Below, in pieces: positions 16,025 through 34,729 of a stretch of 64,000 nucleotides of DNA (its first letter is position 1; each line of letters begins with the position of its first letter). Location: IMG/VR virus record IMGVR_UViG_3300017605_000342, positions 1 to 64,000 of that record. The stretch is one strand, 5' to 3'. The notes beneath the pieces are model-generated. The model had not been told where the DNA came from and did no database searches. It saw only the letters and a list, made by a program, of their open reading frames with translations. Source of the stretch: a virus. The position numbers and the translations under genes are program-made.

Positions 16025-16627
16025 ATGCGAGTCCTTGTTGCTTGTGAGTTCTCTGGGGTAGTGCGGAATGCTTTCAGGGCGCGTGGTCATGATGCTTGGT
16101 CTTGCGATTTACTGCCTGCCTCTGACAATTCCAACTACCACATAGAAACGGATATAATCCACGTCCTTACAGCACGTCCTTGGGATTTAATGATAGCCCA
16201 CCCACCCTGCACATACCTCACAAACGCGGGGGTATGTCATTTACACACAGACAAGGATCGTTGGAAAAAGATGGAAGCTGGTGCTAAGTTTTTTAAATCC
16301 TTGCTTAATGCGCCAATTCCCCACATTGCAGTAGAAAACCCCATCATGCATAAATACGCTGTAAATATTATAGGTCGCCGACAAGACCAAGTTATACAGC
16401 CGTGGATGTTCGGACACAAGGAACAAAAAGCCACTTGCTTATGGTTAAAAGGCGTCCCAAAATTAGTGCCAACAAAAGACGTACGCAAAGCAATGATGCA
16501 ATTACCCAAAGCGCAGAGAGAACGTGTGCACTGGTTACCGCCTAGCAAGGACAGGTGGAAACTACGCAGCATAACCTATTATGGCATTGCGGAAGCAATG
16601 GCCCAACAGTGGGGAGGTTTAGCATGA
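16025..16627 (+). CDS. phage DNA cytosine methyltransferase-like protein
   Basis: VLVACEFSG, HPPCT, ENP, QPWMFG, GIAEAMAQQWG. Confidence 0.8.
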   Translation: MRVLVACEFSGVVRNAFRARGHDAWSCDLLPASDNSNYHIETDIIHVLTARPWDLMIAHPPCTYLTNAGVCHLHTDKDRWKKMEAGAKFFKSLLNAPIPHIAVENPIMHKYAVNIIGRRQDQVIQPWMFGHKEQKATCLWLKGVPKLVPTKDVRKAMMQLPKAQRERVHWLPPSKDRWKLRSITYYGIAEAMAQQWGGLA

Positions 16628-17466
16628 AAATCTACAAAGATCCTAGCCGTGGTACGGGAGAACGTAGATTCTTTTATCATTGGTTTAAACAAAAGCAGGC
16701 ATGGTCAGTGCATTTTGCCAACGCATGCCACGTAGTAAATGACATTCACTGTTTTGTACCATGTGAAACCAAGAGACGGAAGACTCAACCCAAAGCAGTA
16801 ATGCAGGGTTGGGCACACGAAGTCAAAATTAAAAACGGCGTTGCGCAAATCATATGATGCTCAAGTGGGTCGTTGAATTTTATGTACATGATACGTGGGT
16901 TTCAGATGGCTTCGAGTTAGATGACGAACGGGCGCTGGACATGCTGTCTAACGATCTTGCATACGCTATACCCGGTGTAGAGTTAGAAGCTAAAGTTATC
17001 AAAAAACCTAATCCGAAAGTGATTGCCAAACTACAGGGGTTTAGCAATGGGAATGATTGAATGCTTTATGCGCAAAGTACCTGACAGCCAAACAGCCGTC
17101 AAGTACATGAACACTGTGGCCCGCAACATTGATAGGAATGAGAGTGAGAAAGAAGGCTATGAGGTACGCACCCTCAAACCAGAAGATTTTGATTGGGCGT
17201 GGGATGCACAAGACAATCTAAAAAAAGAAGCTGACATAAGAGAAAAATATAAGTTGCTGACTGACCAAGGGCGTGTTATATTTGTGGAGATAGACTGGTG
17301 AGAACTTTCTCAGGCCACATGACACGGTGGGGATCACTGGCTAGCTTGGCTACGTGTATTAAAGTATCAATTACAGCAGCGATAGCACACGAACCAAGCC
17401 CAAGAGCTGTACTGTATTTAGTATTGTCTGGAATTCTTTGGTGGTTTGCATGGGAGGCTGACCGTT

Positions 17467-18858: not shown

Positions 18859-19129
18859 TTATCAACGAAGATCACATCCTGAAGACCATAGCCGAAGAGT
18901 TACAACGTATTGCTGACCAATATGAAATCAAGGTGTTGTGGCCGCCGACACCAACGCCTAATGACCCGTGGGCAAGGGGCAAGAACAGACGTAATCTAGC
19001 ATGTTACATTGTAGATTACATTAACCACGAACAAGAGCGACATGGTAAAACCTTTGTTGTAGATGATACAATGATTCTTGATGCCATCGCTGCTTACAAG
19101 TCTATCAATGAATTAACAATGGTAGTTAT

Positions 19130-19657
19130 ATGAAACTCTCACACGTTAAATCTCGCGTACATGTACCGGATGACTTTGATTATTTACGATCACGTAAAGC
19201 AATACATCCTAGCTGTCCCACTGCTGACAACGACTATTGTGAGTGCACGCTAGATCAAGGTACATTTGGGGAAAGCAAACCAGCACGGTGGTTAGCTGAC
19301 CAATTATCAACCCCAGAACATCTACGCCATATTCGTAGTGTGTCTGCACTGCTGGAAAAATATAATCGTAGGCTTAACATTCTAGAAAACATGTTTCGTA
19401 GAGAACACCTGGCAATTGTATGGGGTGTTGGGTCAGCGTACGAACGCCCTATACAGAAACATTTCCACGAACTTGCGGTGGTGGTGGTGAAAGCCTTAAA
19501 GAAGGAAACATCTACCAAAGTGTTCAGCCACGAGTGGCCTCAAAAAATTAAAGACTGTGTTAATAATCTTGTAACGGCAAAAACAAATAAGCTGTTAAAA
19601 ACTCTGGTAGACTGGAGGCGTCGTGGAAAGATCGACATTTCGGACTGCGGTTTTTGA
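19130..19657 (+). CDS. hypothetical protein
   Basis: 175 aa ORF, ATGA-coupled. Confidence 0.55.
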   Translation: MKLSHVKSRVHVPDDFDYLRSRKAIHPSCPTADNDYCECTLDQGTFGESKPARWLADQLSTPEHLRHIRSVSALLEKYNRRLNILENMFRREHLAIVWGVGSAYERPIQKHFHELAVVVVKALKKETSTKVFSHEWPQKIKDCVNNLVTAKTNKLLKTLVDWRRRGKIDISDCGF

Positions 19658-20621
19658 GCGTGATAATGGGGCATGTGTGGTGTGTGGTCAACCAGCACAA
19701 GACGCACACCACATCCTAGAACGTCGTTTGTGGAACGACGGTGGGTACCACTTAGATAACGGTGCCAGTCTGTGTGGCCCGCATCACCTAGATGCTGAGT
19801 CCACGATTATCTCGGTAGAAGATTTGCGCCTCAAGTGTGGTATTACTCGCAAAGTTATACCGGAACATATGTATGATGACGAGGTATATGACAAGTGGGG
19901 CAACTGCGTACTGCCTAACGGGCAGCGTACAAAGGGAGAATTGTTCAATGACGAGTCTGTTCAAAAGGTGCTGGCTCCCGTATTACATCTGTTCACTGAT
20001 CGTGTTAAGTATCCTCGTACATACCATCTTCCATTTTCACGTAATATTACAGATGATGACCGTGTTATTAGCGATCTTAACATATTTTGTGGGAAACAGG
20101 TTGTTATAACAGAAAAGATGGATGGCGAGAACACCACCATGTACCGTGACGCAATACATGCCCGCTCCATAGACTCTGGAGCACACCCATCACGAACATG
20201 GGTGAAGCAATTTTGGGCACAGATCAAGCACGATATCCCGCCAGGTTGGCGTATCTGTGGTGAGAATGTTTACGCAAAGCATTCCATATATTACGAAGAT
20301 CTTAAGAGTTACTTCTATGGATTTTCTATCTGGGATAGTAACAACCTGTGTTTGGACTGGCATGATACTCTAGTGTGGTTTCAGCTATTTGGTATAGAGC
20401 CTGTACCCACATTATATTTAGGGCTTTATGACCAACAAGTTCTTGATGATCTTACTAATCGAGATTGGAAAACATCAGAGGGCTATGTTGTACGTTTAGA
20501 TAGTGTGTTTTCATATAGGAATTTTAGAGACAGTGTTGCAAAGTATGTGAGAGAGAAGCATGTCCAAACAGTAAAGCACTGGATGCATGGGCAACCAGTA
20601 ATACCAAATAAACTACTCTAG
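19623..20621 (+). CDS. HNH domain fused to Rnl2-family RNA ligase
   Basis: RD..CVVC..DAHH..N..SLC..HH; KYPRTYHLP, TEKMDGEN, GEN, EGYVVR, KYVR. Confidence 0.85.
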   Translation: MERSTFRTAVFERDNGACVVCGQPAQDAHHILERRLWNDGGYHLDNGASLCGPHHLDAESTIISVEDLRLKCGITRKVIPEHMYDDEVYDKWGNCVLPNGQRTKGELFNDESVQKVLAPVLHLFTDRVKYPRTYHLPFSRNITDDDRVISDLNIFCGKQVVITEKMDGENTTMYRDAIHARSIDSGAHPSRTWVKQFWAQIKHDIPPGWRICGENVYAKHSIYYEDLKSYFYGFSIWDSNNLCLDWHDTLVWFQLFGIEPVPTLYLGLYDQQVLDDLTNRDWKTSEGYVVRLDSVFSYRNFRDSVAKYVREKHVQTVKHWMHGQPVIPNKLL

Positions 20622-21853: not shown

Positions 21854-23320
21854 ATGAGCTATTACGGAATTGTCGTCCAACTGGACGGGGTGCGCAAGCA
21901 CCCCGGAGCGGATCGTCTGCAACTTGCTAACTGTTTGGGTAACCAAGTGGTGGTAGGATTGGAGGCACGCGACGGGGATGTTACTGCGTTCTTTCCTGTT
22001 GACGGAAAACTATCAGAAGATTTTTTGAATGCAAACAACCTGTTACCTGTACTTGATGCCCAAGGTAAGCGTATTGGTGGAGGATTCTTTGATGTTAAAG
22101 GTAGAGTTCGCGCTCAAAAATTCAGAGGCGAACGTAGCGAAGGTTTTGCAATCCCGGTTGACGCACTTACGTACACAGGTTATTCAATTGCCAAGCTTAA
22201 GGTCGGCGATCAGATTACGGAACTTAATGGTCACCAAGTTTGCACCAAATACATTAACGAAAAAACTATCAGGGCACAAAAGGAAGCTTCACTTAGAGCA
22301 GCCAAAGTTAAAGTACTAAACTTCCCAGAGCATGTGGACACCGAACAATTCCGGTTTGTAGCGAAGGATATCCCTGCCGGATCATTGGTGTACATCTCTG
22401 CAAAAGAACATGGTACTTCACAGAGATACGCACACACGTTGATGACACGTAATTGGGCACAAGCTCATGTCATTAAGGTAGTGCCGCCACTGAAGTCTTT
22501 GCTGCGTAAGACACCGTTAAGAAAGTATGCTAACGAAGTATGTCGGCGACTTAACAATGTTCTGATCAAGCTAACTTCTAGACATTGTTTTACTATCAAG
22601 CCTAAGTACATACATGCTATTGGTACGCGGCGTACTGTGTTGGATCAGAATTCAAGCACGTCGTTCTATCAGTTAGAACATGGGTCAGAACAGTTTCGTT
22701 ACAATGTTATGCGTGGGGTTGTTTTGCGTAAGGGAGAAATCCTTTACGGTGAAGTTGTGGGCTGGGTATTGCCAGACAAGCCGATTATGTCCCAGTCAAT
22801 TTCAAAAGAAATTAAAAAGTCTTTCGATAAAATCTTCTCACAGCAATACCCTGGTGACCAGATGATTTACAAGTATGGCGTCCCCAACGGTGGTGCTGAA
22901 TTCCACGTGTACCGTATTGCCCACGTTAATGAAGACGGTAACATGGTTGACTTGCCGTGGACCCAAGTCGTACGTCGTTGTAAAGAACTGGGATTGAAGA
23001 CTGTTCAGTTAATGAACTTGAATTACTCCAAAGTGCAAGATGGAGTATTTCCGGTTATAACATACAACTATCAAAACCCATTTATCTACGACGGCAATGT
23101 ACGAGACTTACAGGAATTGGTTAATAGTCTGTTAGAAAAGCCCGCCATCTCAGATCCGTCACACATTGAAGAGGGCGTTGTGCTGCGTGTAGAACAGCCT
23201 GACGGTGAGATCAAATACATCAAGCAAAAGAGCTTTGCCTTCGGGGTCCTAGAAGGTTACGCAAAGCTTGACGAAAATTATGTTGACACTGAAGAAGCAG
23301 CCAGTGCCGAATCTGCTTGA
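21854..23320 (+). CDS. RNA ligase, DRB0094/Rnl5-like, with N-terminal tRNA-binding OB fold
   Basis: KHPGADRLQL, FRGERSEG; motif I KEHGTS, YGE, EGVVLR, KQKS. Confidence 0.8.
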   Translation: MSYYGIVVQLDGVRKHPGADRLQLANCLGNQVVVGLEARDGDVTAFFPVDGKLSEDFLNANNLLPVLDAQGKRIGGGFFDVKGRVRAQKFRGERSEGFAIPVDALTYTGYSIAKLKVGDQITELNGHQVCTKYINEKTIRAQKEASLRAAKVKVLNFPEHVDTEQFRFVAKDIPAGSLVYISAKEHGTSQRYAHTLMTRNWAQAHVIKVVPPLKSLLRKTPLRKYANEVCRRLNNVLIKLTSRHCFTIKPKYIHAIGTRRTVLDQNSSTSFYQLEHGSEQFRYNVMRGVVLRKGEILYGEVVGWVLPDKPIMSQSISKEIKKSFDKIFSQQYPGDQMIYKYGVPNGGAEFHVYRIAHVNEDGNMVDLPWTQVVRRCKELGLKTVQLMNLNYSKVQDGVFPVITYNYQNPFIYDGNVRDLQELVNSLLEKPAISDPSHIEEGVVLRVEQPDGEIKYIKQKSFAFGVLEGYAKLDENYVDTEEAASAESA

Positions 23321-23345
23321 TTTTCTAACAACTTTGTGGTAGTCT
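23317..23345 (+). promoter_or_regulatory. sigma70-type promoter with extended -10
   Basis: TTGATT-17 nt-TAGTCT with TG at -15/-14, then AGGAG RBS of ORF 23358. Confidence 0.6.
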
Positions 23346-23357
23346 TTAGGAGATCAT

Positions 23358-23579
23358 ATGGAACGTACTTATGAAGTAAAAGTTTATAGAGTAGAACTAA
23401 TATGTGATGCGTGCGGTCAAGGAACAATGAAGCCAACCGGAACCATGATCGGCGGTTGGCCTCCCAAGTTTCCACATCAGTGTACAGAATGTTTAACCAT
23501 TAACAGTTATTTATTAGAACAATACCCAAGAACAGTATATAAAAAGATACCCAATCAACCAGAGGAAATCACAAAATGA
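23358..23579 (+). CDS. zinc-ribbon protein
   Basis: CDAC...HQCTEC; AGGAG RBS. Confidence 0.6.
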   Translation: MERTYEVKVYRVELICDACGQGTMKPTGTMIGGWPPKFPHQCTECLTINSYLLEQYPRTVYKKIPNQPEEITK

Positions 23580-24394
23580 AGAAAGTGCATCTAATTACCA
23601 TCGATGGACAGAATGACTTCTGCTCCTTCAGTAACAAGCGTGGTGCATTGTATGTCGGAGCAGACGCATCTGCGGCTGAGGCTGACATTAAGCGGTTGGC
23701 CAACTTCGTTACCAAAGTTGGTGACCGCCTAACAATGATCCACAGCACGTTGGACTCACATCACCCACAACACATTGCCCACGCCATTATGTGGACAAAC
23801 TCTAAGGGTGAGCAACCGCCAATTTTCAACCCGATCTTCAAGGCAGATGTTGAGTCGGGCAAGTGGTTTGCACACAACCCACGCCTGCGTGCTGCATTCC
23901 AGAACTATGTAAACGAACTGGAAAAACACAACCGTTATGTCTTGGTCATTTGGCCTCAGCATTGTATCATTGGCTCGTGGGGCCACGCGCTGTACCCGGA
24001 ACTGTCAGATGCATTTATCGAATGGCAGAACCGTTACCACAAGCGTATTAACTACGTTGCTAAAGGCAGCAACATGTTGACCGAACATTACTCCGCTGTG
24101 CAGGCTGACGTGCCGGACGATGCTGATCCGACCACCAAGCTGAACACACAGTTGATTGACTTGCTGGCAAAGAACGCTGACGAAATCCTGATCACTGGTC
24201 AGGCACTGTCCCATTGCGTTGCCAACACAATCACGGACATCGCCAATAACTTTGGCGAAGAGAACATTAAGAAGTTTACATTACTAGAAGATACTTGCTC
24301 TAATGTTCCTACCTTTGAAAAGCTAGGACAAGACTTCGTTAAAGATATGACTAAGCGTGGAATGCGCACTACCACTACATCTAACTGGAGCTAA
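23576..24394 (+). CDS. nicotinamidase/isochorismatase-family cysteine hydrolase
   Basis: DGQNDF, DSH, WPQHC, KG...EHYSA, GQALSHCV (Asp-Lys-Cys triad and metal ligands). Confidence 0.85.
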   Translation: MKKVHLITIDGQNDFCSFSNKRGALYVGADASAAEADIKRLANFVTKVGDRLTMIHSTLDSHHPQHIAHAIMWTNSKGEQPPIFNPIFKADVESGKWFAHNPRLRAAFQNYVNELEKHNRYVLVIWPQHCIIGSWGHALYPELSDAFIEWQNRYHKRINYVAKGSNMLTEHYSAVQADVPDDADPTTKLNTQLIDLLAKNADEILITGQALSHCVANTITDIANNFGEENIKKFTLLEDTCSNVPTFEKLGQDFVKDMTKRGMRTTTTSNWS

Positions 24395-24395
24395 C

Positions 24396-25145
24396 ATGAA
24401 TTCGGTAGATTTGAACGACGGTCTAGCACAGTTTAATACAACCTCAAACTACAAGTTTTCTGCAATACCTGTAGACCAGGTTGGTGCTTCTGAAATCACG
24501 TTGGTGACTCTGGTCACTGACGTTAGTGGCTCTGTTATTGATTTTGCAAAACGTATTGAAGAGATGCTTAAGACTGTGGTAAAATCCTGTCAGTCTCCGA
24601 AATGTCCACGTGCTGACAACCTGATGTTTCGGTTGATTGACTTTGCAGATTATGTTACAGAACTGCATGGGTTCAAGCCTGTGGAGTCCATCAAAGGTGA
24701 TGCCTACAATGGAATTATCCAAATCAAAGGGTCAACCGCCCTCTTCGATGCAGTTGCGCAGGCTGTCGAAGCTACTACAAAGTATGGCAAAGAATTATAC
24801 GATCAGGATTTTACTCCCAACGCCATTATCTTCATCATCACCGATGGAGAAAACAATCGACCTCCAATGGACGCCTCTGTTGTTGCAAAGGCCATTGGTG
24901 AAGCCCGAAAGTCAGAAGCTTTGGTGTCGATCACAACGGTCTTGATCGGTGTCACGGATAATTCTGCGTCCTTGTCACAGTACTTACAAGAGTTCAAGGA
25001 CACAGCAAAGATCGATCAGTACATTGACATTGGCAGTGCTACACCCGGCAAGCTGGCGAAGCTCGCTGACTTTGTGAGTAAGTCTGTGAGTTCTACATCA
25101 CAGGCTATTACAACTGGTGCGGCTTCTGCTCCATTAACATTCTAA
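24396..25145 (+). CDS. vWA domain protein (TerY-like)
   Basis: MIDAS DVSGS, GSTALFDA, IITDGENN. Confidence 0.85.
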   Translation: MNSVDLNDGLAQFNTTSNYKFSAIPVDQVGASEITLVTLVTDVSGSVIDFAKRIEEMLKTVVKSCQSPKCPRADNLMFRLIDFADYVTELHGFKPVESIKGDAYNGIIQIKGSTALFDAVAQAVEATTKYGKELYDQDFTPNAIIFIITDGENNRPPMDASVVAKAIGEARKSEALVSITTVLIGVTDNSASLSQYLQEFKDTAKIDQYIDIGSATPGKLAKLADFVSKSVSSTSQAITTGAASAPLTF

Positions 25146-25152
25146 GTATATT

Positions 25153-25228
25153 GCACGGATCGACAAGAGGCTTAAGTCGCATGGCTGCAACCCATGCATC
25201 GGGGGTTCGAATCCCTCTCCGTGCTCCA
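25153..25228 (+). tRNA. tRNA-Cys(GCA)
   Basis: GCACGGA/TCCGTGC, CATGG-CTGCAAC-CCATG, U73, CCA. Confidence 0.92.
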
Positions 25229-25234
25229 GTTTAT

Positions 25235-25312
25235 AGGGTCGCATGCTCCAAGGCTGGCGAGTTCGCCTCCAAAGCTTACTGTGGATGGGTTCGATTCCCT
25301 CCGGCCCTGCCA
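25235..25312 (+). tRNA. tRNA-Trp(CCA), irregular anticodon stem
   Basis: AGGGTCG/CGGCCCT, loop CTCCAAA, T-loop TTCGATT, G73-CCA. Confidence 0.78.
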
Positions 25313-25329
25313 TAATAAAAGTATAAATA

Positions 25330-25406
25330 CGGCTCATAGTATAACGGACAATTACACTAGCCTTTTAAGCTGTGAGATCGGGGTTCAAATCCTCGTGGGC
25401 CGACCA
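25330..25406 (+). tRNA. tRNA-Lys(TTT)
   Basis: CGGCTCA/TGGGCCG, loop CTTTTAA, CCA. Confidence 0.88.
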
Positions 25407-25408
25407 AA

Positions 25409-25484
25409 CGTTTCGTAGTATAGTGGCAATTACATCCGACTCTTAATCGGTAAGACGGAGGTTCAAGTCCTCCCGAAACGACCA
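25409..25484 (+). tRNA. tRNA-Lys(CTT)
   Basis: CGTTTCG/CGAAACG, loop CTCTTAA, CCA. Confidence 0.9.
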
Positions 25485-25488
25485 CAAC

Positions 25489-25564
25489 CGGACTATAGCT
25501 CAGTTGGTTAGAGCAGGCGGCTGATAACCGTCCGACTCAGGTTCGACTCCTGATAGTCCGACCA
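25489..25564 (+). tRNA. tRNA-Ile(GAT)
   Basis: CGGACTA/TAGTCCG, loop CTGATAA, CCA. Confidence 0.92.
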
Positions 25565-25581
25565 TCCTTTTAGGAGACAAT

Positions 25582-26238
25582 ATGCTGGATTCATTGTTGA
25601 AGAAAGCAAAGTCATTCGTAGTTGAAGATGTTCCTGAAGCAGCACCGCTTAAAGCACGCCCTACAGTTGCTCCCCAACCAGCACCCGCCCAAGATGTAGA
25701 TTTCGGACACCAGTCTTCTACCAATGTTGAACCAAAGGTAGAAGAACTACGCACACAATTGCTCCCTACATCCGGGCCGCTGGTTATGTTCACCAGTGTT
25801 CTTAACTCATTGCAAGGGGCCATCCCCAACGAAGCTACCAGATTCCGCACAGCAGTCCAAGTACTGGGAGCACAGGGCATAACTTTACAGTTAGTATCTC
25901 AAGAAATAAATACAGTGTTAGGAAAAATAGAAGCGCATAAAAACGCAGCAGAAGAAGCCCGCGCAAGAAAGTACAAAGAACGTGTCACAGACAAACAGGG
26001 AGAAATTGACAGAGTAGAAAAACAGCTTGAGGCTAAACAAGCAGAAATTGCTCAACTCATTCTACAGAAAGATACCCTCCAAGCTGAGATTCAGACTTCT
26101 GAAACTCAAATCAAAGAGCGGGCATGGCAGTGGGAAGCAGCACGTGCTACATTGTCTGACGAGTATAATGATTTGTCTAAGAAGTTGGATATTTATTTTG
26201 ACAACAACAGCAAAGCAACTCAAGGAGCATCAAAGTGA
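25582..26238 (+). CDS. coiled-coil protein
   Basis: AGGAG RBS; Pro-rich N-terminus, heptad-rich C-terminal half. Confidence 0.7.
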   Translation: MLDSLLKKAKSFVVEDVPEAAPLKARPTVAPQPAPAQDVDFGHQSSTNVEPKVEELRTQLLPTSGPLVMFTSVLNSLQGAIPNEATRFRTAVQVLGAQGITLQLVSQEINTVLGKIEAHKNAAEEARARKYKERVTDKQGEIDRVEKQLEAKQAEIAQLILQKDTLQAEIQTSETQIKERAWQWEAARATLSDEYNDLSKKLDIYFDNNSKATQGASK

Positions 26239-27275
26239 CGACATTACCTACCGTCGCATCAGAACCAGGTAAGAAGAGTTTTTGGAAGCGACCAGAAGGC
26301 ATCACCGGAATTGTTTTTAACGTAGCACTGGGTGCAGCTATCTTCTTCGGTTGGGGTACTATCGTGCCGTTTGTGTTAGCGGCTGCGGTCAATACTCTTA
26401 ACCTGATTGTGGTATCCCTCGCAGCGGCTGGCATCGTGTACGTCATGTTCGACAAGAACTTCAGACGGTTCTTGTGGTACTTGTACCGATCTGCAATGCG
26501 TTGGGTAACACAGTTCATCGTCGATATCGACCCTATCGGTATCTTGAAAAGCTATATAGAAAAGCTTATTGAAAAACGTACAGAGTTAAACGACTCAGTA
26601 GCTGAGATTCAAGGCCAGAGACAAAAGCTGGTTAGATTACTAGCTAAAAATAAAGAAGAGTTTAAAACTAGCCTAGCAAAACTACAAGCAGCTAAGGCTC
26701 AACTGAACGACTCTGACCCACTCAAGGCGAGACAAGCGGTTAGAATCGAGGCACTGGAATCAAAGCAGGCGGATCGCCTGCACCAAATGGTTACGACACA
26801 GGAAGGTCACGAAAAGAAATATGACTTCATCGTCCAAGCATTGACAAGATACGGAGAAGTGTGCGACGATAGTATCACGGACATGCGCAATGAAGTCTCT
26901 TTCAGGGAGCAAGAACAGGAGCAGGCCCGATCCTTCAAGAAGGGAATGTCTGCTGCTTTTGGAATCCTGAAAGGGTTGCCAGACGATCAGGAAATGTACG
27001 ACATGGCTTTGGAAACTCTCGAAAGAGAATACACAGAGAACATGGGTAGGGTTGAAAATGTTTTGGACATCACCAAGAATGTTATTTTACAGGCAGACTT
27101 TAACGATGCAGCTTCTTTAGCAAAAGCAGATGCATTGTTGTCTGACTGGAATAACAGTCACACAATACTACCTACTAAAAAAGAACAAGCAGCAATTACA
27201 GCAGCGCCTTTTTACATCAGCCCGTCAGAAGTTGTGCAAGTAAAAGCTAAGACGGCTGACAAATTGTTCGACTAG
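26235..27275 (+). CDS. membrane-anchored coiled-coil protein (PspA-like architecture)
   Basis: SFWKRPEGITG, two N-terminal TM segments, DPIGILK then long coiled coil; AAGGAG RBS. Confidence 0.7.
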   Translation: MTTLPTVASEPGKKSFWKRPEGITGIVFNVALGAAIFFGWGTIVPFVLAAAVNTLNLIVVSLAAAGIVYVMFDKNFRRFLWYLYRSAMRWVTQFIVDIDPIGILKSYIEKLIEKRTELNDSVAEIQGQRQKLVRLLAKNKEEFKTSLAKLQAAKAQLNDSDPLKARQAVRIEALESKQADRLHQMVTTQEGHEKKYDFIVQALTRYGEVCDDSITDMRNEVSFREQEQEQARSFKKGMSAAFGILKGLPDDQEMYDMALETLEREYTENMGRVENVLDITKNVILQADFNDAASLAKADALLSDWNNSHTILPTKKEQAAITAAPFYISPSEVVQVKAKTADKLFD

Positions 27276-27286
27276 GAGCGTCACTC

Positions 27287-29074
27287 ATGGCTACTCGTGT
27301 TAAGCTACTGCCCAAATTAGTGGGCATTTTCGCCATCGCTGCAATCTTTGCGTTCGGCTACAGGTCGTTGATTTATCATGGTATCGTCAAGCGGCCTGAT
27401 GCTTTGAAATCGCTTGTTCCGATTCAAACAGAAGACATTCAGGCAGAAGTGTTACAGCATGACACTAACGTTAAAGTAGTTCCTTTACCTAAAAGCATTG
27501 TTACGCAGATAAGTGGGCCTGTTATCAAAGGCTCATTGTGGTTCTGGAATTCACAGTTCGGAGTCATGGTGGCTAACGGCGGGCCACTTACCACACAAGG
27601 CTCATTGGTCGAAGCTCAAGGCGTGAAGTTACGTTTAGAGCGTCAAGATGACCCAGAGCAAATGCGTAATGAACTTGCGGTGTTTGCGACGGCTCTAGCC
27701 GGGGGTAACCCACACCCAACTGTTGGTACCCATTTTGTGTTTATCATGGGCGACGGTTCTGCTGCGTTCTTGGCACCGCTCAATGAACGGCTAAAGAAGC
27801 TTGGGCCGGAATACATTGCTGAAGTTGTGGACAGTGTTGGGTACTCACGTGGCGAAGACGGCTTTTGGGGACCTGCGACTTGGAAGTCGGAACCTAAGTT
27901 AGCCAGAGGTTCTTTGATTGCTGTCGTGCTACGTGACGGTGATTGGAATTTGATTTTGCGTTGGGCGCACATCAACGATATTCCAGTTAATCCAGATGAA
28001 AAAACGTATGACCCCAATGCCATCAATTTACTGGCAACGGCTACATACATTGAAGCATCACAGCGCTACATCGCTGGTTACTGTGATGAACGACCGCTTA
28101 AAGACAAGCCTGCTGAAATGGCAAAGCTCTGCGTTAACGGTGTTGCTACGTGGACACCCGGCGACGTGATGATTGCCGAAAAGAAAGGCGGCTTAGTTCC
28201 TTTGATGACTACCAAGTCAGCGTTCTTCCAGATGCCGAATACTGTAATCGGTATTAAAAAGTGGAACGCCGCAAACGCAGACAAGGTTGCTGGTATGATA
28301 GCCGCGTTTGCCCAAGGTGCGGATCAGGTGCGCACTAATCCAAACGCCTTCCGTAAAGCAGCAGAAATCAGTGTAGCTGTTTACAAAGAACAGGATGCCG
28401 AATATTGTATGCGATACTTCAAGGGTGTTACTAAAAAAGATCTACAAGGTAACACTGTAGAACTAGGTGGCTCTGCTGTATCTAACCTAGCAGACGTGCG
28501 ACAACTGTTTGGTATGGATGGTGGCCCTAACATTTTCAAGAAGACTTACGAAACATGGGGCAATGCTGTTATCCAACAGTATCCGACGTTGATGGCGGCG
28601 TATCCTCCGACTGAGGAAATCCTCAACACTCGGTACGTTGCATTGGCGTCAGCTAAAATCAACCAAGCTGAAGCATTACCTGCTGATGCTCCGACCTATT
28701 CTGAGAACGCTCCTATCACAGAAGTGATTGGGCATAGGGCATACAGTATTAATTTCCGTACAGGGTCTGCTGAAATCCTACCTAATTCTTACTCTGTACT
28801 AAATGAAATTGTAGACGACTTGGTTACGTCTAACACCCAAGTAATTGTACATGGTCATACCGATAACACAGGCACGGCGGCTGGCAATGAGTCCTTGTCA
28901 AACGCTCGTGCGCTTTCTGTCAAGCGGTACTTCACTGTCAAGGGTGGAACAGCAGTTCCGGCTGTCAGAGTGAAGACAGTTCCCCACGGACAAGACGAGC
29001 CTGTGGCTGATAACAGCAGTGAGGCTGGTCGTGCTAAAAACCGTAGAGTGGAGATTGTTCTAGGAAAACAGTAA
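27287..29074 (+). CDS. ABC substrate-binding protein (SsuA/THI5-like) fused to OmpA_C peptidoglycan-binding domain
   Basis: N-terminal TM; SRGEDG, TWTPGD; C-terminal HGHTDNTG..NESLSNARA..PVADN..GRAKNRRVEI. Confidence 0.8.
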   Translation: MATRVKLLPKLVGIFAIAAIFAFGYRSLIYHGIVKRPDALKSLVPIQTEDIQAEVLQHDTNVKVVPLPKSIVTQISGPVIKGSLWFWNSQFGVMVANGGPLTTQGSLVEAQGVKLRLERQDDPEQMRNELAVFATALAGGNPHPTVGTHFVFIMGDGSAAFLAPLNERLKKLGPEYIAEVVDSVGYSRGEDGFWGPATWKSEPKLARGSLIAVVLRDGDWNLILRWAHINDIPVNPDEKTYDPNAINLLATATYIEASQRYIAGYCDERPLKDKPAEMAKLCVNGVATWTPGDVMIAEKKGGLVPLMTTKSAFFQMPNTVIGIKKWNAANADKVAGMIAAFAQGADQVRTNPNAFRKAAEISVAVYKEQDAEYCMRYFKGVTKKDLQGNTVELGGSAVSNLADVRQLFGMDGGPNIFKKTYETWGNAVIQQYPTLMAAYPPTEEILNTRYVALASAKINQAEALPADAPTYSENAPITEVIGHRAYSINFRTGSAEILPNSYSVLNEIVDDLVTSNTQVIVHGHTDNTGTAAGNESLSNARALSVKRYFTVKGGTAVPAVRVKTVPHGQDEPVADNSSEAGRAKNRRVEIVLGKQ

Positions 29075-29886
29075 TGACTTCAATCAAGGGTGCGGGTACC
29101 TTAAGGCTAGCCCGCACCTTATTCACCCCAAACGAAAGTGTTCCCACCAAAATTTATTACTGTATACTTTTAGCTTATTTGTTAAGTTCTGTGTTCATGT
29201 GGGCATTCTACCCCTCGCCCATATTCCCAACCCCATTAGGTGTTATCGAAGCCCTGCCTGGTTTATGGAACCAAGGATTAGGTTATGAGTTATGGGTAAG
29301 TATCACACTCAACATGCAGGCGGTTGCTATAATGTCTGTGGTATCCCTGCTTATTGGGTACGCTGACACCATTACGGCTCTACGACCACTACCTACGTGG
29401 GTGAGTGCCTTCCGGTCTAACGGGTTTGTTGGATTGCCGTTGTTGCTGACGTTCCTTATTAGCAGTCAGCATTGGATTAAGGTCATGTTACTAGTCATCG
29501 GCATGTCAGTGTTTACGGTGCCGTCAATCGTTGCTATGATCCACGGAATGCATCGTAATGTCTTTGACCATGCGCGAGTACTGCGTATGAACGAGTGGCG
29601 GGTGCTGTGGGAGGTAGTAGTACTAGGCAAGTTCCATGAAGTGTTGGATATCTTGCGCACCAACATGGCAATTGGTTGGATGATGCTACCAATGGTAGAA
29701 GGGCTGTTCAAAACTGAAGGTGGCATCGGAGCTATGATCCTAGCTCAAAACAAATTCTTTAGATTAGAAGAAGTATATTGTATTATCTTTGTAGTCATTG
29801 CGGCGGGATTACTCCAAGACGCAGCAATAAAGGGAGTGCGACGGTTGTTATGCCCGCACGCATACATTAACACGGAGAAGAAGTAA
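29074..29886 (+). CDS. ABC importer permease (SsuC/TauC-like)
   Basis: about 6 TM helices, FPTP, EAA-like loop FDHARVLRMNEWRV, E..GGIG. Confidence 0.85.
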   Translation: MTSIKGAGTLRLARTLFTPNESVPTKIYYCILLAYLLSSVFMWAFYPSPIFPTPLGVIEALPGLWNQGLGYELWVSITLNMQAVAIMSVVSLLIGYADTITALRPLPTWVSAFRSNGFVGLPLLLTFLISSQHWIKVMLLVIGMSVFTVPSIVAMIHGMHRNVFDHARVLRMNEWRVLWEVVVLGKFHEVLDILRTNMAIGWMMLPMVEGLFKTEGGIGAMILAQNKFFRLEEVYCIIFVVIAAGLLQDAAIKGVRRLLCPHAYINTEKK

Positions 29887-30194
29887 TGTTATACAAAGAC
29901 AAACTAGGACAAGACATTAAAGTCGGTGATTACATAGCGTATGGTGCGGCATTGGGTAGGTGTTCTACGATTCATTTAGGGCGAGTGCTAGAACTTACAC
30001 AAAGTAAAGTAACTGAGTGGCATCACGACAAGCCAACACCTAAGCTAAAAGTACGCGCATGTACCAATCATAGTTGGGATGAAACTAGAGGCATGCAGCT
30101 ACTGTCAAAACCAGTGTCGTTAGGTTTCTTTGAACGTTTGGTTGTGTTGCATCCAGACACCGTACCTCAAAACATTAAGGAACTACTACAATGA
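29886..30194 (+). CDS. hypothetical SH3-like phage protein
   Basis: KDKLGQDIKVGDYIAY. Confidence 0.6.
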   Translation: MLYKDKLGQDIKVGDYIAYGAALGRCSTIHLGRVLELTQSKVTEWHHDKPTPKLKVRACTNHSWDETRGMQLLSKPVSLGFFERLVVLHPDTVPQNIKELLQ

Positions 30195-30596
30195 GCCAAA
30201 GTAAGCGTTTACCACTTGCAGAAGTTAGAGTAGCCTGTGGGCGGTGCTTCTTGTCAGTCGCTGGTATCGCAGTGGCAATGGAAACGGACCCATGCAGGGA
30301 GATATCTATACCGGAAGCATTACTAGAACCTATACCACAACATGAATTGGACAATGCGTACATTGGAGGAAAGGCAGCAAAGGATTTACCAATTGAAGTT
30401 GTTAGGTATTTTCGTGGTGACAGTTGGACTCCCAAGATGCTTGACTACGTGGCTGACAAGATAAATAAGGCGGTGGAGAATGGATTGTAGTTGTATTTTA
30501 GGGCTTATCGGGCCTGTAGGTGGCTTCATTGTGGGTGTTATGTGCCTGTATGGACTATATAGGATCACATGGAAAATAATGTTTGGAGAGTAACGA

Positions 30597-31442
30597 GTGT
30601 ACACCAGAGACGAAGTGTTATTGCACATAGAAAACGTATCTCAAAAATATGAAGATAAAGTTGTTTTAGAAAACTTAAGTATTAAGATACATAATCTACA
30701 TGCAACAGACGCGGCGGTAACTGCCGGACAGGTTGTAGGATTCTTAGGGCCTTCCGGTTGTGGTAAGACACAGTTGTTGCGTATCATATCTGGGCTACAG
30801 CGCCCAACCACTGGAGAAGTATTTATAGATGCAGATAAAAAACGTATGCGTAAAGGTATGTGTGGTGTGGTTTTCCAAACGTACCCACTGTTCTTGCATC
30901 GAACAGTTATGGGAAATTTGTTGCTAGCCGGAAGCATGGCTGGCATGACTCATGCAGAAGCTATGAACACCGCCAATGAACTGCTGGCTACGTTTGAGTT
31001 AGAAGGATCAGCAGAGAAATTTCCAGGTGAGTTGTCTGGCGGTATGCAACAACGTGTTGCTATCTGCCAACAACTTATTAACATGGACAGTAAGCTAGGG
31101 CATACAGATACACGCTTGATGTTGCTGGACGAGCCGTTTGCTGCATTGGACCCGCGCAATACCTTTAAGACGTGCAAACTACTACGTAAGGTCGCTGACA
31201 TGCACGACCTAAACACCATCGTTGTCGTCACACACGACATACGTGCGGCGTTATCAGTTAGTGACGTGCTGTGGATCATGGGCAGAGATAGAGACGAGAA
31301 CGGTAAGGTATGCTCTGGCGGAAAGATAATCCAAGAGTTGGATCTAGTCAACCAAGGGCTAACGTGGCACCCAGAAGTAGAGTCACTACCAGCATTTATA
31401 AAGCTTAACAAAGATATCAACGAACTATTCCACATACTGTGA
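30597..31442 (+). CDS. ABC transporter ATPase (SsuB/TauB-like)
   Basis: GPSGCGKT, VFQ, LSGGMQQRVAI, LLDEPFAALD, VTHD. Confidence 0.95.
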   Translation: MYTRDEVLLHIENVSQKYEDKVVLENLSIKIHNLHATDAAVTAGQVVGFLGPSGCGKTQLLRIISGLQRPTTGEVFIDADKKRMRKGMCGVVFQTYPLFLHRTVMGNLLLAGSMAGMTHAEAMNTANELLATFELEGSAEKFPGELSGGMQQRVAICQQLINMDSKLGHTDTRLMLLDEPFAALDPRNTFKTCKLLRKVADMHDLNTIVVVTHDIRAALSVSDVLWIMGRDRDENGKVCSGGKIIQELDLVNQGLTWHPEVESLPAFIKLNKDINELFHIL

Positions 31443-31449
31443 GGACACT

Positions 31450-31761
31450 ATGAACTTTAATTTGGCAGTAGGTGTAGCACAAAAAGACTCAGGCATCGCG
31501 GCTGCAAAAGCAGCCAGGGTACAGCTTGTTAAGTTGGCGCGTGAGGTTGCCAAAGCCACAGCAGCAGAGAGAGAACTTCGACTCGTCACGATAGACGATG
31601 TATATCGTGTACTTGCCATGAAAGGCCATGACGTTAGCCAGCTAGGAAATGCTGCTGGGTCAGTGTTCAAAGAATCGTGTTGGGAATTTGTCGGATGGAG
31701 GCCATCTGAACGAGTCAGTAACCATGCAAGACCTGTTCGAATCTGGAAATATGCAAACTAA
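31450..31761 (+). CDS. hypothetical protein (possible wHTH)
   Basis: GAGG RBS; VTIDDV..GNAAGSVF..HAR..W. Confidence 0.6.
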   Translation: MNFNLAVGVAQKDSGIAAAKAARVQLVKLAREVAKATAAERELRLVTIDDVYRVLAMKGHDVSQLGNAAGSVFKESCWEFVGWRPSERVSNHARPVRIWKYAN

Positions 31762-32572
31762 TCATTACACTGCTATCGGGGCTGATCACAAAGTTTGTCA
31801 AGACTACGCTGCATCAGGGCTAGTAAACAACGTGGAGTTCGGCCCCACATTCTATGGTATAGTGTGCGATGGATGTTCTTCTGCACCACACACAGAGTTT
31901 GGTGCACAGGTTATCACCCACGCTGCTATCCATCAACTTAAAGTAAATCCATACAAGGTGCCAGAAGACTTCATACGTGAAGTTATGAACCGCGCAAGAA
32001 AAGCTATCGAGCCACTAGATATTAATCCTCGGTGTTTGTTAGCTACGTTACTGCTTGTGCGGGCCGACGACAAAGACACCATCGTGTGGCTGTGGGGTGA
32101 CGGGTTATGCCGCATCTCTTATCAAGGTGGCACAACAGTTACACAAGAAGTGGAGTATGACTCCAACGCTCCGTTTTATCCATACTACAGCACCACTAGA
32201 ACAGAGCGTGATTCTTACCTCAGTTCTTTTGATCTTGTCAAACGAGTGCGCCACTCAGATGTTTACCATGATGGCCGGGAGCGCGGTGGAGAAGAAATAC
32301 TTAAAGGTCCCGAAGCAATGCTGGTATCAGGCTTGTGTGTTAATACAGCAGACATTAAAGCAGTGACGGTAATGTCAGATGGTATCAAGTCGTTTCAAGA
32401 CGTGAATCAGGCTCCTGTGTCACAGCACACGACGATCAACGAAGCAACGATATTCAAAACCACAACCGGACAGTACATTGAACGCAGAATGCACGCCTTC
32501 AAGCAACGCCTCTGTGTGGCTAATGGCTGGACACACTACGACGATCTTGGTATCGCGGGAGTAGCGCAATGA
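31751..32572 (+). CDS. PP2C-like protein phosphatase (TerY-P type)
   Basis: H.VCQD, VCDGCSS, ATLL, GDG, MSDG, DDLG. Confidence 0.88.
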   Translation: MQTNHYTAIGADHKVCQDYAASGLVNNVEFGPTFYGIVCDGCSSAPHTEFGAQVITHAAIHQLKVNPYKVPEDFIREVMNRARKAIEPLDINPRCLLATLLLVRADDKDTIVWLWGDGLCRISYQGGTTVTQEVEYDSNAPFYPYYSTTRTERDSYLSSFDLVKRVRHSDVYHDGRERGGEEILKGPEAMLVSGLCVNTADIKAVTVMSDGIKSFQDVNQAPVSQHTTINEATIFKTTTGQYIERRMHAFKQRLCVANGWTHYDDLGIAGVAQ

Positions 32573-32663
32573 AAGACAGAATCTTTTGGTGGTTAGTTGA
32601 ATACGCACAGATTATATCTTGGATAGTTTTGATTATCACATTGTTTCTTCTGAGATTTTGTCA

Positions 32664-33044
32664 ATGAACGCAATACAAGCAGCAAAGAAAACTAAGGCGG
32701 CAATAGCAAGACAAAAGAAAGAAGAGCGGCTAAAGGAATTGCAGCAAGAAAGAGAATCCAAGAAACGGGTTGCTACGGCCCTAGCACAGCTTGATTGGTA
32801 CATGCGGGAAGTTAATAAGAGAATCAGAGAAGCCATCAATGCGGGTGTACACAAGGCAAACTACGACTTTGGGGATGATGACACTGGTAGAGCACTCATG
32901 CACGCGGTACGAAAAAGATTAGAGAAACGAAAGTTCATCGTTCATACAGGATACTACTCTGAAACACACGACTACGGAGATTTTAACGCGCCATGTGTAG
33001 TAGAGGAATCCGGTTTTAATATGACCATTTCGTGGGGTGCGTAA
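32664..33044 (+). CDS. hypothetical basic protein
   Basis: ORF between the phosphatase and the kinase. Confidence 0.55.
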   Translation: MNAIQAAKKTKAAIARQKKEERLKELQQERESKKRVATALAQLDWYMREVNKRIREAINAGVHKANYDFGDDDTGRALMHAVRKRLEKRKFIVHTGYYSETHDYGDFNAPCVVEESGFNMTISWGA

Positions 33045-33046
33045 GA

Positions 33047-34729
33047 ATGAAGAAGACACTCACAATTGCGGGGCACAACGAGGTAATTACCGACAAGAAT
33101 TATCTCGGTGCCGGCGGGGAGGCTGCGGTGTACACCAGCGCCAATGGGCTGTTGGTATACAAGCTTTACCACGACCCGCAAAAGGCGGTAGCAATCCTTA
33201 ACAAGATTGCAGAGTTAAAAGCAATTCAATCAAAGGACGTTCTGATTCCACGCGATGTTATCTACGAAGGCGGCAGCCCCGTAGGATACTCGATGGATTT
33301 TTTAAGTAAGACAGATCCTTTGTGTAAGTTTTTTACCAAAGCTTTTAAGAATTCTCAAAAGATAACTCCAGATCAAATAAAGGAATTGATAACAAACATA
33401 CAAAAGATCGTACCGCACATCCACAAAGCACGGTGCCTAATTGTGGATTTCAATGAGCTAAATGTGCTGGTAGAAGCTGACAGGATTACACCGCACATTA
33501 TAGACACAGATAGTTTTCAAACACCAAACTATCCTGCCACAGCAATCATGCCGTCGATCAGAGATCCTAAAGCAACGAAGTTCACAGAACTGTCTGACTG
33601 GTTTTCGTGGGGCATCCTAGCCTTTCAAGCTTACATTAACATCCACCCGTACAAGGGCAATCATCCAGACTACACGGCAATGGACTGGCCGCGTAGAATG
33701 CAGGATAATGTCAGTGTCTTTGACAAGAAAGTAACCCTGCCTCCGGTATGTAATCCGCTGTCTGTAATTCCAAAAAACCACCTACATTGGTTTGAGGCGG
33801 TATTCCAGAAAGGTGATAGAAGCGTGCCGCCGTTAGCCGACGCAGTGGCTATCCCTGTACCACAGGCAATACAGATCGTAAAGTCCTCTGGTAAGTTTAT
33901 TGTAGCTCCTGTACAACAGTATGACTCTAAGATACGCTTCCATATAACATATGGTGGGGCAAACTGGGTAGCAACCCAGACAGCTATCTACAAGCCGCGC
34001 AACATAGGTGCTACTGTATCAAACACAGGACGTACTCGGTTGGTCCCTACTCATGACGGTGAACTGGTCGTTGTAGAAGTCAGTGGCGATTACATTGCGT
34101 TCAAGGACGCGGCCATGCATGAGTTCGGCCACACTACGTCTAATGGCGGGCGGTGCTTTGTCAAGAACAACGCACTGTATACCACCATTGCAGGCAAGCT
34201 TATCGAAACTACCTTCATTACTATGGGCAAGAAGATCATACCCCGCACTGTAGACCTTGACAATGTTTCAGAAATATCTTCCAGAATGTGTGAAGGTATT
34301 ATTGTACAGGATCTATTGGGTGAGATTTTTATAACAGTACCATATGTTGTGGGTCGTAGCAAGACCACCAAGCTACCGGAAGTTAAAGGCTACAGGGTCT
34401 TGGAGGCCCGCTCAGAAAGAAACGTTGTTGTTCTTGTTACAGAGAAGGGTGGCGAGTACTGGAGATTTGTTTTAACCTTCGACAACACGTGGGGCGCACA
34501 TACTTTCCGCTTGACAAAAATGCAGCAGTATGGTAGCATTAATATGACGGTGAAACCAAATGGCGTTGGTATCCTTGTCTCTGACCTTGACGAGATCGAA
34601 GTCTTCAAGGAAGACAAGGTTGTGGTTTATAAGAACCCGCCCTTTGATGAATCCATGTGGCTCTTTAATGTCAATGACAATGTTTGTTTTATCTCAGGTA
34701 ATCAAATCTACCAAGTTAAAATAACATGA
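33047..34729 (+). CDS. Ser/Thr protein kinase (TerY-P type) with beta-rich C-terminal region
   Basis: LGAGGEAAVY, VYKLY, IVDFNELNVLV, IDTDS, SDWFS, IHPYKG. Confidence 0.85.
   Translation: MKKTLTIAGHNEVITDKNYLGAGGEAAVYTSANGLLVYKLYHDPQKAVAILNKIAELKAIQSKDVLIPRDVIYEGGSPVGYSMDFLSKTDPLCKFFTKAFKNSQKITPDQIKELITNIQKIVPHIHKARCLIVDFNELNVLVEADRITPHIIDTDSFQTPNYPATAIMPSIRDPKATKFTELSDWFSWGILAFQAYINIHPYKGNHPDYTAMDWPRRMQDNVSVFDKKVTLPPVCNPLSVIPKNHLHWFEAVFQKGDRSVPPLADAVAIPVPQAIQIVKSSGKFIVAPVQQYDSKIRFHITYGGANWVATQTAIYKPRNIGATVSNTGRTRLVPTHDGELVVVEVSGDYIAFKDAAMHEFGHTTSNGGRCFVKNNALYTTIAGKLIETTFITMGKKIIPRTVDLDNVSEISSRMCEGIIVQDLLGEIFITVPYVVGRSKTTKLPEVKGYRVLEARSERNVVVLVTEKGGEYWRFVLTFDNTWGAHTFRLTKMQQYGSINMTVKPNGVGILVSDLDEIEVFKEDKVVVYKNPPFDESMWLFNVNDNVCFISGNQIYQVKIT

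Follow-up and report, generated by a model that had tools for sequence, protein, structure and literature searches.

A nicotinamidase-like gene linked to a TerY-P-type kinase, phosphatase and vWA gene set in very large phages, and a separable ABC importer operon nested in the cassette of one lineage

The IMG/VR contig IMGVR_UViG_3300017605_000342, from a jumbo phage (160,874 bp, CheckV completeness 77 %), carries, in the first 64 kb that were analysed here (the window), genes for a nicotinamidase-like enzyme, a von Willebrand factor A (vWA) protein, a PP2C-type phosphatase and a Ser/Thr kinase, with the genes for an ATP-binding cassette (ABC) importer lying among them. The question raised by this locus is whether these genes form one system or several and what they might do for a phage. 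An earlier note, made from the sequence alone, had read them as a single 11-gene system under one promoter. The protein genes that it listed are all in place on the plus strand. However, the window holds two separable modules, an importer operon (module B) nested in a four-gene cassette (module A), with four tRNA genes at the same vWA/PP2C junction. We put at about even the chance that module A is a regulated entry into nicotinamide-to-NAD+ salvage in very large phages and that module B is an independent operon inserted into it.

The four genes of module A are listed below, with lengths in amino acids (aa).

23576-24394, plus strand: gene 1, nicotinamidase-like cysteine amidohydrolase of the PncA/Pnc1 type with an isochorismatase fold, 272 aa
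24396-25145, plus strand: gene 2, vWA protein with an intact metal ion-dependent adhesion site (MIDAS) motif and a Ser-rich C-terminal tail, ~249 aa
31751-32572, plus strand: gene 3, PP2C-type Ser/Thr phosphatase, ~273 aa
33032-34729, plus strand: gene 4, Ser/Thr kinase of the YegI type (residues ~1-265) followed in the same protein by an all-beta propeller (~284-559)

Alignments of homologues indicate that the vWA gene probably starts at 24396 and not at 24357, as they begin near residue 14-19 of the longer open reading frame (ORF), and that the PP2C gene probably starts at 31751 and not at 31649.

The product of gene 1 matches the Pfam Isochorismatase family (27.3 bits), and when a profile of its own family was compared with the PDB the top match was yeast Pnc1 (E 2.9e-17), the best seven matches and most of the 14 listed being nicotinamidases. 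The triad D10/K163/C214 is invariant among 33 family sequences and aligns with the Pnc1 motifs, and D60, H62, H129 and W126 are invariant in the same set, which fits the Asp/His/His site (DxH ... WPxHC); D60, H62 and H129 we take to be metal ligands, as in the Pnc1 and PncA structures. The fold, the Asp-Lys-Cys triad and the Asp/His/His site are common to the phage enzyme and to PncA/Pnc1 of the Preiss-Handler route (PncA, PncB, NadD, NadE), and genes of the phage type adjoin true PncB and NadE genes in relatives. Unlike PncA/Pnc1, the phage enzyme is permanently linked to a vWA/PP2C/kinase set and scores well under the curated PncA cut-off, and its family, at ~265-275 aa, exceeds the 180-216 aa of the solved nicotinamidases. 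The protein appears to belong to a distinct subfamily lying below that cut-off, and this subfamily includes 1430 representative clusters at E <= 1e-30. Proteins fusing the nicotinamidase-like and vWA domains were sought among long family members and none was found, and a predicted complex of the two separate proteins scored 0.00, which weighs neither for nor against binding. Two long eukaryote-type proteins carry the domain at their C-terminus, one of 1629 aa with ankyrin repeats and an ion-transport domain (P0243) and one of 1452 aa with DOMON and cytochrome b561 domains (P0374), architectures that may hint at use of the domain in ligand sensing or as a 'chanzyme'.

The other three genes of module A belong to the same three families, in the same vWA, PP2C, kinase order, as the TerY-P triad, which was reportedly described by Anantharaman et al. 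in 2012 and which includes YegL-PphC-YegI of Escherichia coli (in K-12 the order is yegL, encoding the vWA protein, then pphC, yegJ and yegI). The kinase (Pkinase, 25.7 bits) is clearly YegI-like, an alignment of 41 family members matching the E. coli YegI kinase domain over 250 columns with an hhalign probability of 97.3 % (E 1.6e-11); the Gly loop (G23, G24), E56, D134, N139 and D153 are invariant in the family and the catalytic K39 is present in at least 90 % of sequences. The phosphatase (PP2C_2, 49.9 bits against a cut-off of 24) resembles PphC (88.5 %, E 2.7e-6), and its metal-binding residues D18, D40, D117, D210, D264 and D265 are invariant in 31 sequences. The vWA protein (VWA_2, 21 bits) has invariant MIDAS residues (D42, S46, T114 and D150 in 34 sequences) and conserved serines in its tail (S228/S230/S235); its likeness to YegL is weak (42 %, E 2.7e-4), though the Ser-rich tails align. 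The AF2 model of the kinase has a pLDDT of 87, its C-terminal 275 residues are modelled as a beta-propeller, and the top Foldseek matches are LRRK2, which combines a kinase with WD40, BamB and virginiamycin B lyase. The same kinase-propeller architecture is found in BFVD in one uncultured myovirus kinase.

Module A differs from the TerY-P triads in several respects. The vWA gene always has a nicotinamidase-like gene ahead of it, the vWA protein is only weakly YegL-like, and the cassette is mainly phage-borne, its links being with PncB and NadE and not with genes of the Ter, restriction or CoCoNuT kinds. At its C-terminus the kinase has a beta-propeller of ~275 aa and not the Zn ribbon or OB fold in which, according to PMC11090510, the described TerY-P kinases end. 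On the sequence comparisons, module A would be a form of the TerY-P/YegI triad in which a TerY-P-type phosphorylation switch is kept physically linked to a nicotinamidase-like enzyme, and the coupling of enzyme and triad that the earlier note had proposed is borne out to that extent. Its idea that the block senses the envelope is unsupported, as hydropathy analysis found no transmembrane (TM) segment in any of the four cassette proteins, which are cytoplasmic; hence, the kinase does not sense the envelope directly. PADLOC returned no defence-model match for the phage vWA, PP2C or kinase proteins, and E. coli YegL, PphC and YegI, used as a control, likewise gave no TerY-P match, YegI having only weak matches to the PD-T4-6 and MkoA kinase models in PADLOC-DB v2.0.0. 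As the E. coli triad (L053) is itself missed, a negative PADLOC result for such triads is uninformative and does not signify absence.

Module A is a conserved cytoplasmic four-gene cassette that is carried mainly by jumbo and huge phages. IMG/VR was sampled from both ends of the cassette. A scan with a single kinase sequence gave no match and an alignment was needed as the query; this found 141 contigs, of which 80 loci were kept, and a search centred on the nicotinamidase-like gene found 248 contigs and gave 78 loci, 70 of them with enough flanking sequence. The order nicotinamidase-like gene, vWA, PP2C, kinase was seen in 67 of the 80 kinase-centred loci, with all four genes present but rearranged in 4 more. 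From the nicotinamidase side the canonical order was present in 55 of the 70 loci and all four genes, in any order, in ~60, and most loci lacking the full set adjoin PncB or NadE. The canonical order was also found in 23 of 43 GTDB loci, six others having the nicotinamidase-like, vWA and kinase genes without PP2C, and all 43 come from metagenome-assembled genomes (MAGs), none from isolates. At least 222 full-length homologues of the kinase (555-585 aa) were recovered on contigs of up to 368 kb, and in every informative neighbourhood a ~265-aa protein, a ~248-aa vWA protein and a PP2C are encoded upstream of it, in that order. The published huge phages LR756511 and LR745208 carry the same four genes at 29-47 % identity. 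Though the earlier note had called the triad normally bacterial, the nicotinamidase-linked version is mostly phage-borne. Its view that the system was undescribed stands for module A, no description of the cassette having been found in the literature searched.

The GC content of the cassette equals that of its flanks in hosts from 27 % to 74 %, and the order and adjacency of the cassette genes are kept where the kinase and PP2C proteins are 30-45 % identical, in both phage and cellular contexts. Where the cassette is rearranged (L023, L051, L052, L099 and L204), the nicotinamidase-like/vWA and PP2C/kinase pairs stay together, and the genes flanking the cassette vary widely between loci. In phage copies the vWA/PP2C junction is a frequent insertion point, with gaps of up to 4.4 kb in the kinase-centred loci; a Pfam search of the genes in this gap in two huge phages gave one sulfotransferase-like match only. 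In most relatives PP2C adjoins vWA, whereas in the window the two are separated by a 6.5-kb insertion. In a 100-row FastTree phylogeny of concatenated proteins (nicotinamidase-like, vWA and kinase), the window groups with full support in a clade of 17 rows, of which 13 are viral, and an 11-row clade from the Myxococcota is nested among viral rows.

The genes found next to the cassette in its relatives include those for Nudix/NrtR-like proteins, NADAR, ADP-ribosylglycohydrolase, Tpt1, RNA ligase, nicotinate phosphoribosyltransferase (NAPRTase, PncB) and NAD synthase (NadE). PncB is encoded within 8 kb on either side in 31 of the 80 kinase-centred loci, with at least 12 changes on the tree, and NadE within the same distance in 15. 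PncB, alone or with NadE, occupies the vWA/PP2C junction in L106/L107, L116, L118/L119 and L125, is the gene just before the cassette in L042, L089, L102 and L135, and the one just after the kinase gene in L018 and L075. The cassette-adjacent PncB proteins score 303-402 bits on the TIGR01514 equivalog, for which the cut-off is 269.55, and in one locus (L005) a NadM-like gene and one for a glutamine-dependent NadE are present as well. The recurrence of PncB and NadE beside or inside the cassette points to regulated salvage of nicotinamide to NAD+. The only other family related to NAD or ADP-ribose that was found in the 161-kb contig itself is NADAR, with one gene at 59649-60059 that scores 84 bits and exceeds the cut-off.

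The make-up of the two modules, their conservation, the fact that they occur apart and the presence of PncB and NadE nearby are shown by the sequence comparisons; the substrate of the enzyme, the direction of its regulation and a role in counter-defence we infer. Nicotinamide released by NAD+-cleaving host defences or by NAD+-consuming phage reactions would be deamidated by the nicotinamidase-like enzyme to nicotinate, the substrate of PncB. NAD+ would then be rebuilt from nicotinate, in many relatives by phage PncB, NadM-like and NadE enzymes and in this phage by those of the host. The kinase/PP2C pair would toggle deamidation on and off, probably by way of the vWA tail or the enzyme, and the propeller is the likely input domain of the switch. 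Module B and the tRNA genes would have landed, in this lineage, in the variable vWA/PP2C junction.

Phage-encoded rebuilding of NAD+ from breakdown products or precursors has precedents. NARP1 consists of Adps and Namat and NARP2 of Nampt and Nmnat, both consuming nicotinamide, and NARP3 (PMC13464706) pairs a transporter, PnuC, with a NadR-like enzyme. None of the three uses nicotinamidase, PncB or NadE, nor a kinase/phosphatase/vWA switch, and no nicotinamidase, PncB or cassette of the present kind is mentioned in the papers on them or in a 2022 survey of viral NAD+-ADPr systems.

The five genes of module B all lie between the vWA and PP2C genes.

25582-26238, plus strand: gene 1, soluble coiled-coil protein, 218 aa
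26235-27275, plus strand: gene 2, coiled-coil membrane protein (cc2) with two TM helices by hydropathy (residues ~22-59), 346 aa
27287-29074, plus strand: gene 3, membrane-anchored substrate-binding protein (SBP; residues ~65-470) fused to peptidoglycan-binding OmpA_C (490-586), 595 aa
29074-29886, plus strand: gene 4, putative TauC-like ABC permease, 270 aa
30597-31442, plus strand: gene 5, ABC ATPase, 281 aa

Judged by its homologues, this module appears to be an autonomous envelope-uptake operon of bacterial type that jumbo phages have picked up repeatedly. On a Chitinimonas contig (JAYRLZ010000019, L054) all five have counterparts, identically arranged, in an 'OmpA family protein' operon encoding proteins of 209, 345, 604, 263 and 276 aa. 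The phage proteins are 26 % (first coiled-coil protein, E 9e-7), 28 % (cc2, E 3e-35), 46 % (binding protein), 43 % (permease) and 40 % (ATPase) identical to their counterparts there. The phage copy differs in having small ORFs and tRNA genes interleaved and in lying inside the cassette, whereas the bacterial copy lies beside a two-component system. On an Acidobacteria contig the last three genes stand behind those for PspA and an AAA protein, and another jumbo phage has all five with no cassette nearby. In IMG/VR, module B was found on 78 contigs (L214-L291), mostly of jumbo or huge phages and up to 578 kb long, and in at least 50 of these 78 loci the cc2 gene precedes the binding-protein gene in the order cc2, binding protein, permease, ATPase.

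The 595-aa binding protein has an N-terminal hydrophobic segment (residues 4-22) and a C-terminal OmpA match of 72.8 bits, and more than 3000 homologues of ~600 aa were found, many of them bacterial at ~50 % identity. A sequence profile of its N-terminal ~440 residues found no match in the PDB and the fold was recovered by structure alone. The model of residues 40-485 (pLDDT 88, pTM 0.89) shows a class II periplasmic binding-protein fold and gave TauA (6ssy, E 1.4e-10), NrtA (2g29) and CmpA (2i49) as the top Foldseek matches, with SsuA and ThiY also among them (E range 1e-10 to 1e-7). The permease scores below the cut-offs for both BPD_transp_1 (16.1 bits against 26.4) and TauC (30 bits against 342), and has at least four hydrophobic segments and the same operon position as its Chitinimonas counterpart. 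The ATPase is well above the ABC_tran cut-off (84.5 bits against 25) and its top NCBIfam matches are importer ATPases, including PhnT2, CysA, PotA and TauB. The binding-protein fold, the importer-type ATPase and the gene order are features of the NitT/TauT importers (TauABC, SsuABC, NrtABCD, CmpABCD, ThiXYZ), and a permease like TauC may be another. Unlike these, the phage operon begins with genes for two coiled-coil proteins, and its binding protein is membrane-anchored, fused to OmpA_C and without a sequence-level match to solved binding proteins. The first coiled-coil protein matches only coiled-coil families, and a similarity to PspA/IM30 was considered and is not supported.

The two modules seldom occur together. 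Module B was present in none of the 80 kinase-centred loci and in one (L204) of the 78 nicotinamidase-centred loci and, from the other side, a nicotinamidase-like gene was found in 7 of the 78 module B records and in 3 of 27 with a completeness of 90 % or more. Independent occurrence of the components in homologous loci, which the earlier note had named as refuting a single system, is seen for the ABC part: it is free-standing in bacteria and 24 of the 27 near-complete importer phages have no nicotinamidase-like gene. Nesting of one module in the other was seen again in the closest relative, L006, which has a kinase 68 % identical to that of the window and the same insertion at the vWA/PP2C junction. 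The conservation of this insertion, a GC content that matches the surroundings and the position in a phage-dominated clade support the long residence in phages that had been suggested for the block.

Several observations weigh against the combination of a salvage cassette and an independent importer. The enzyme scores 46.4 bits on the NCBIfam PncA model (NF008623), under the equivalog cut-off of 174 bits, and has ~60-80 residues beyond nicotinamidase size, so that another amide could be its substrate. No PncB/Nampt, NadE, Nudix, Tpt1 or ADP-ribosylglycohydrolase gene was found in the 161-kb contig, which is 77 % complete, and the NAD context is thus borrowed from relatives. A salvage enzyme would have no obvious need of a vWA/PP2C/kinase switch. 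Some copies of the cassette are in cellular-looking surroundings, which would fit a role in defence: one is on an Armatimonadota contig near a BTAD/NB-ARC/TPR protein (a STAND-like NTPase) and a PIN/RHH pair, and others are on Myxococcota contigs, including a Nannocystales contig with ordinary kinases nearby. Finally, the modules lie within ~12 kb of each other in five lineages, in the five arrangements below, which argues against full independence, and they are close in two of the five records of at least 200 kb that have both (p ~0.04 under uniform placement).

Arrangement 1: window and L006, module B inside the cassette
Arrangement 2: G051, PP2C, kinase, nicotinamidase-like gene, vWA, cc2, SBP
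Arrangement 3: G026, cassette, 3.3 kb, SBP, permease, ABC ATPase
Arrangement 4: G042, a 416-kb phage, NadE, PncB, cc2, SBP, permease, ABC ATPase, PP2C, kinase, nicotinamidase-like gene, vWA
Arrangement 5: G011, divergent, 9.9 kb apart

This proximity is suggestive of joint working, and five cases are too few to decide the matter. An integrated system, in which a pyridine NAD precursor or an envelope-derived signal is caught by the peptidoglycan-tethered binding protein, taken in through the transporter and then processed or sensed by the cassette, is the alternative that survives best, and we consider it unlikely. Besides the recurrent co-location, the vWA/PP2C junction that holds module B here houses PncB/NadE in other phages, the fold family of the binding protein includes heterocycle binders (ThiY, a thiamin binder, and PqqT), and NARP3 (PMC13464706) shows that a phage NAD+ pathway can combine a transporter with an enzyme. 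However, the importer is missing from every kinase-centred locus and the nicotinamidase-like gene from 71 of the 78 importer records, bacterial importer operons adjoin two-component or PspA/AAA genes and not NAD genes, the modules are more than 80 kb apart in three large phages, short contigs bias detection toward close pairs, and the cassette proteins have no membrane segment.

A broader proposal would have module A at the centre of a fourth, deamidating route to NAD+ (PncA-like enzyme, PncB, an adenylyltransferase and NadE) whose switch detects NAD+-depleting immunity and which is fed by the importer in some lineages, including this phage; we regard this as speculative and rather improbable. 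If true, the route would be set apart from NARP1-3 by its gating through vWA, PP2C and the kinase-propeller, and a peptidoglycan-tethered ABC importer would supply an external pyridine precursor in a subset of lineages.

Defence or superinfection exclusion, with the propeller-kinase sensing a rival infection and the nicotinamidase destroying the nicotinamide that rivals need for rebuilding NAD+, is in our judgement doubtful. Antiphage activity as a stand-alone system is on record for TerY-P-like triads (Gao et al. 2020, cited in PMC11090510), module A has a YegI-type kinase and shares its gene order with yegL-pphC-yegI, some copies stand beside the PIN/RHH pair and STAND-like NTPase mentioned above, and NARP1 and NARP2 both consume nicotinamide. 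Yet the family is overwhelmingly found on viral contigs, all 43 of the GTDB matches being MAGs, and with PncB and NadE so tightly and frequently linked to the cassette, use of nicotinate fits better than its disposal. The kinase also has no C-terminal Zn ribbon or OB fold such as the described TerY-P systems carry, and no nuclease or other toxic effector is present.

It is still less probable, and in our view quite improbable, that the gene order is merely inherited and that the nicotinamidase is an ordinary auxiliary metabolic gene beside a signalling triad with which it has no joint function. Related phages do keep gene order by descent, the tree is mostly vertical and the enzyme-vWA complex prediction gave no verdict, but descent alone would have had to preserve order and adjacency (kinase and PP2C at 30-45 % identity) across the whole range of GC contents and in phage and cellular contexts, and to keep the two gene pairs intact through rearrangement while the flanking genes differed widely, and the triad was recovered in ~60 of the 70 loci sampled from the nicotinamidase side.

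Mis-assembly was checked against an independent ENA assembly from another sample (L006, L007), in which the binding-protein, permease, ATPase, PP2C and kinase genes follow in the same order and the kinase gene is succeeded by homologues of the next two phage genes in the window; hence, the block is not a mis-assembly. That the block is host DNA, mis-assembled into a phage contig or recently transduced, is scarcely credible, since the GC content at 24-34 kb (0.454-0.468), ~2 points above the window mean of ~0.44, and importer proteins 40-51 % identical to bacterial ones are outweighed by the same junctions on both sides in that assembly, the phage tRNA genes and small phage ORFs interleaved in the block, the viral contigs that are the nearest relatives of the cassette, and a megablast of the block against the phage collection that gave no DNA-level match to any record.

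If module A is a regulated salvage entry as proposed, it bears on two questions, namely what TerY-P-type triads act upon and how very large phages manage NAD+. Depletion of NAD+ is a common bacterial antiphage strategy, and the three described phage NAD+ pathways have neither a nicotinamidase/PncB/NadE route nor a signalling switch. The cassette, on at least 248 IMG/VR contigs, mostly of jumbo or huge phages, and with its enzyme subfamily of 1430 representative clusters, would connect a phospho-switch of the YegI/TerY-P type, a kind present in E. coli too, with a defined enzyme acting on a small molecule. Module B, on its 78 IMG/VR contigs, makes a peptidoglycan-anchored ABC importer a recurrent auxiliary operon of jumbo phages.

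The remaining features of the block are as follows.

23358-23579, plus strand: 73-aa Zn-ribbon-like protein with two CxxC pairs, outside the conserved cassette
25153-25564, plus strand: block of four tRNA genes, found by both ARAGORN and Rfam
25153-25228, plus strand: tRNA-Cys(GCA), ARAGORN/Rfam
~25235-25311, plus strand: tRNA-like element between tRNA-Cys and tRNA-Lys, not called by ARAGORN or Rfam
25330-25406, plus strand: tRNA-Lys(UUU), ARAGORN/Rfam
25409-25484, plus strand: tRNA-Lys(CUU), ARAGORN/Rfam
25489-25564, plus strand: tRNA-Ile(GAU), ARAGORN/Rfam
29886-30490, plus strand: two small ORFs of 102 and 99 aa between the permease and ATPase genes, variable phage accessory ORFs
31450-31761, plus strand: small ORF of 103 aa overlapping the PP2C start, not conserved
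32619-33044, plus strand: small ORF of 141 aa between the PP2C and kinase genes, not conserved

The extended -10 promoter that had been placed ahead of the block corresponds to TTGATT-17 nt-TGgTAGTCT, a site that matches 7 of 12 consensus positions plus the TG and is not listed by the promoter scan; the region holds 25 promoter-like sites, no more than chance would give (20.1 +/- 5.4). The genes of the block are indeed co-oriented, but this is not special to them, as coding in the window is almost wholly on the plus strand (~54 kb of plus-strand ORFs against 4 kb on the minus strand, the latter mostly spurious). With the promoter weak and co-orientation window-wide, both were dropped as evidence for an operon.

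Five tRNA genes had been counted in the block, among the 20 tRNA genes of the window; four were found, together with the tRNA-like element. The acceptor stem of this element is 7-8 bp long, its T arm is canonical (GGGTTCGATTCCC) and its CCA is encoded, but the anticodon arm with its 7-nt loop is replaced by a 4-bp stem closed by 4 nt, and its fold energy is no better than that of shuffled sequences (z = -0.33). In the cassette-bearing phage LR745208, five tRNA-Leu genes, each with a different anticodon (taa, caa, tag, gag and cag), are tightly clustered (L003, 28928-29418) ~12 kb downstream of the cassette.

The sole family match of the 73-aa CxxC protein is a PHROG of unknown function, and relatives carry other genes (Nudix/NadM-like, PncB) in its place upstream of the nicotinamidase-like gene. 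One of the two small ORFs at 29886-30490 also matches PHROGs of unknown function, and no homologue of either was detected in L006 or in the bacterial importer operons. The 103-aa ORF was considered as a conserved fifth cassette gene and rejected, as the small ORFs that L005 and L008 have at this place are not similar to it, and the 141-aa ORF gave no significant family and no match in related loci. Just upstream of the cassette are two distinct RNA ligase genes (19620-20615 and 21854-23320), the first of which encodes a protein 52 % identical to the RNA ligase adjoining the cassette in L004, and RNA-repair genes (a Pnkp-like AAA_33 + HD protein, Tpt1) also flank the cassette in relatives. At 14925-20135, L004, a cassette-bearing phage contig, further has the gene for a hybrid histidine kinase of 1031 aa, with HisKA, HATPase, receiver and Hpt domains, and beside it an IS605-type Y1 transposase/TnpB pair.

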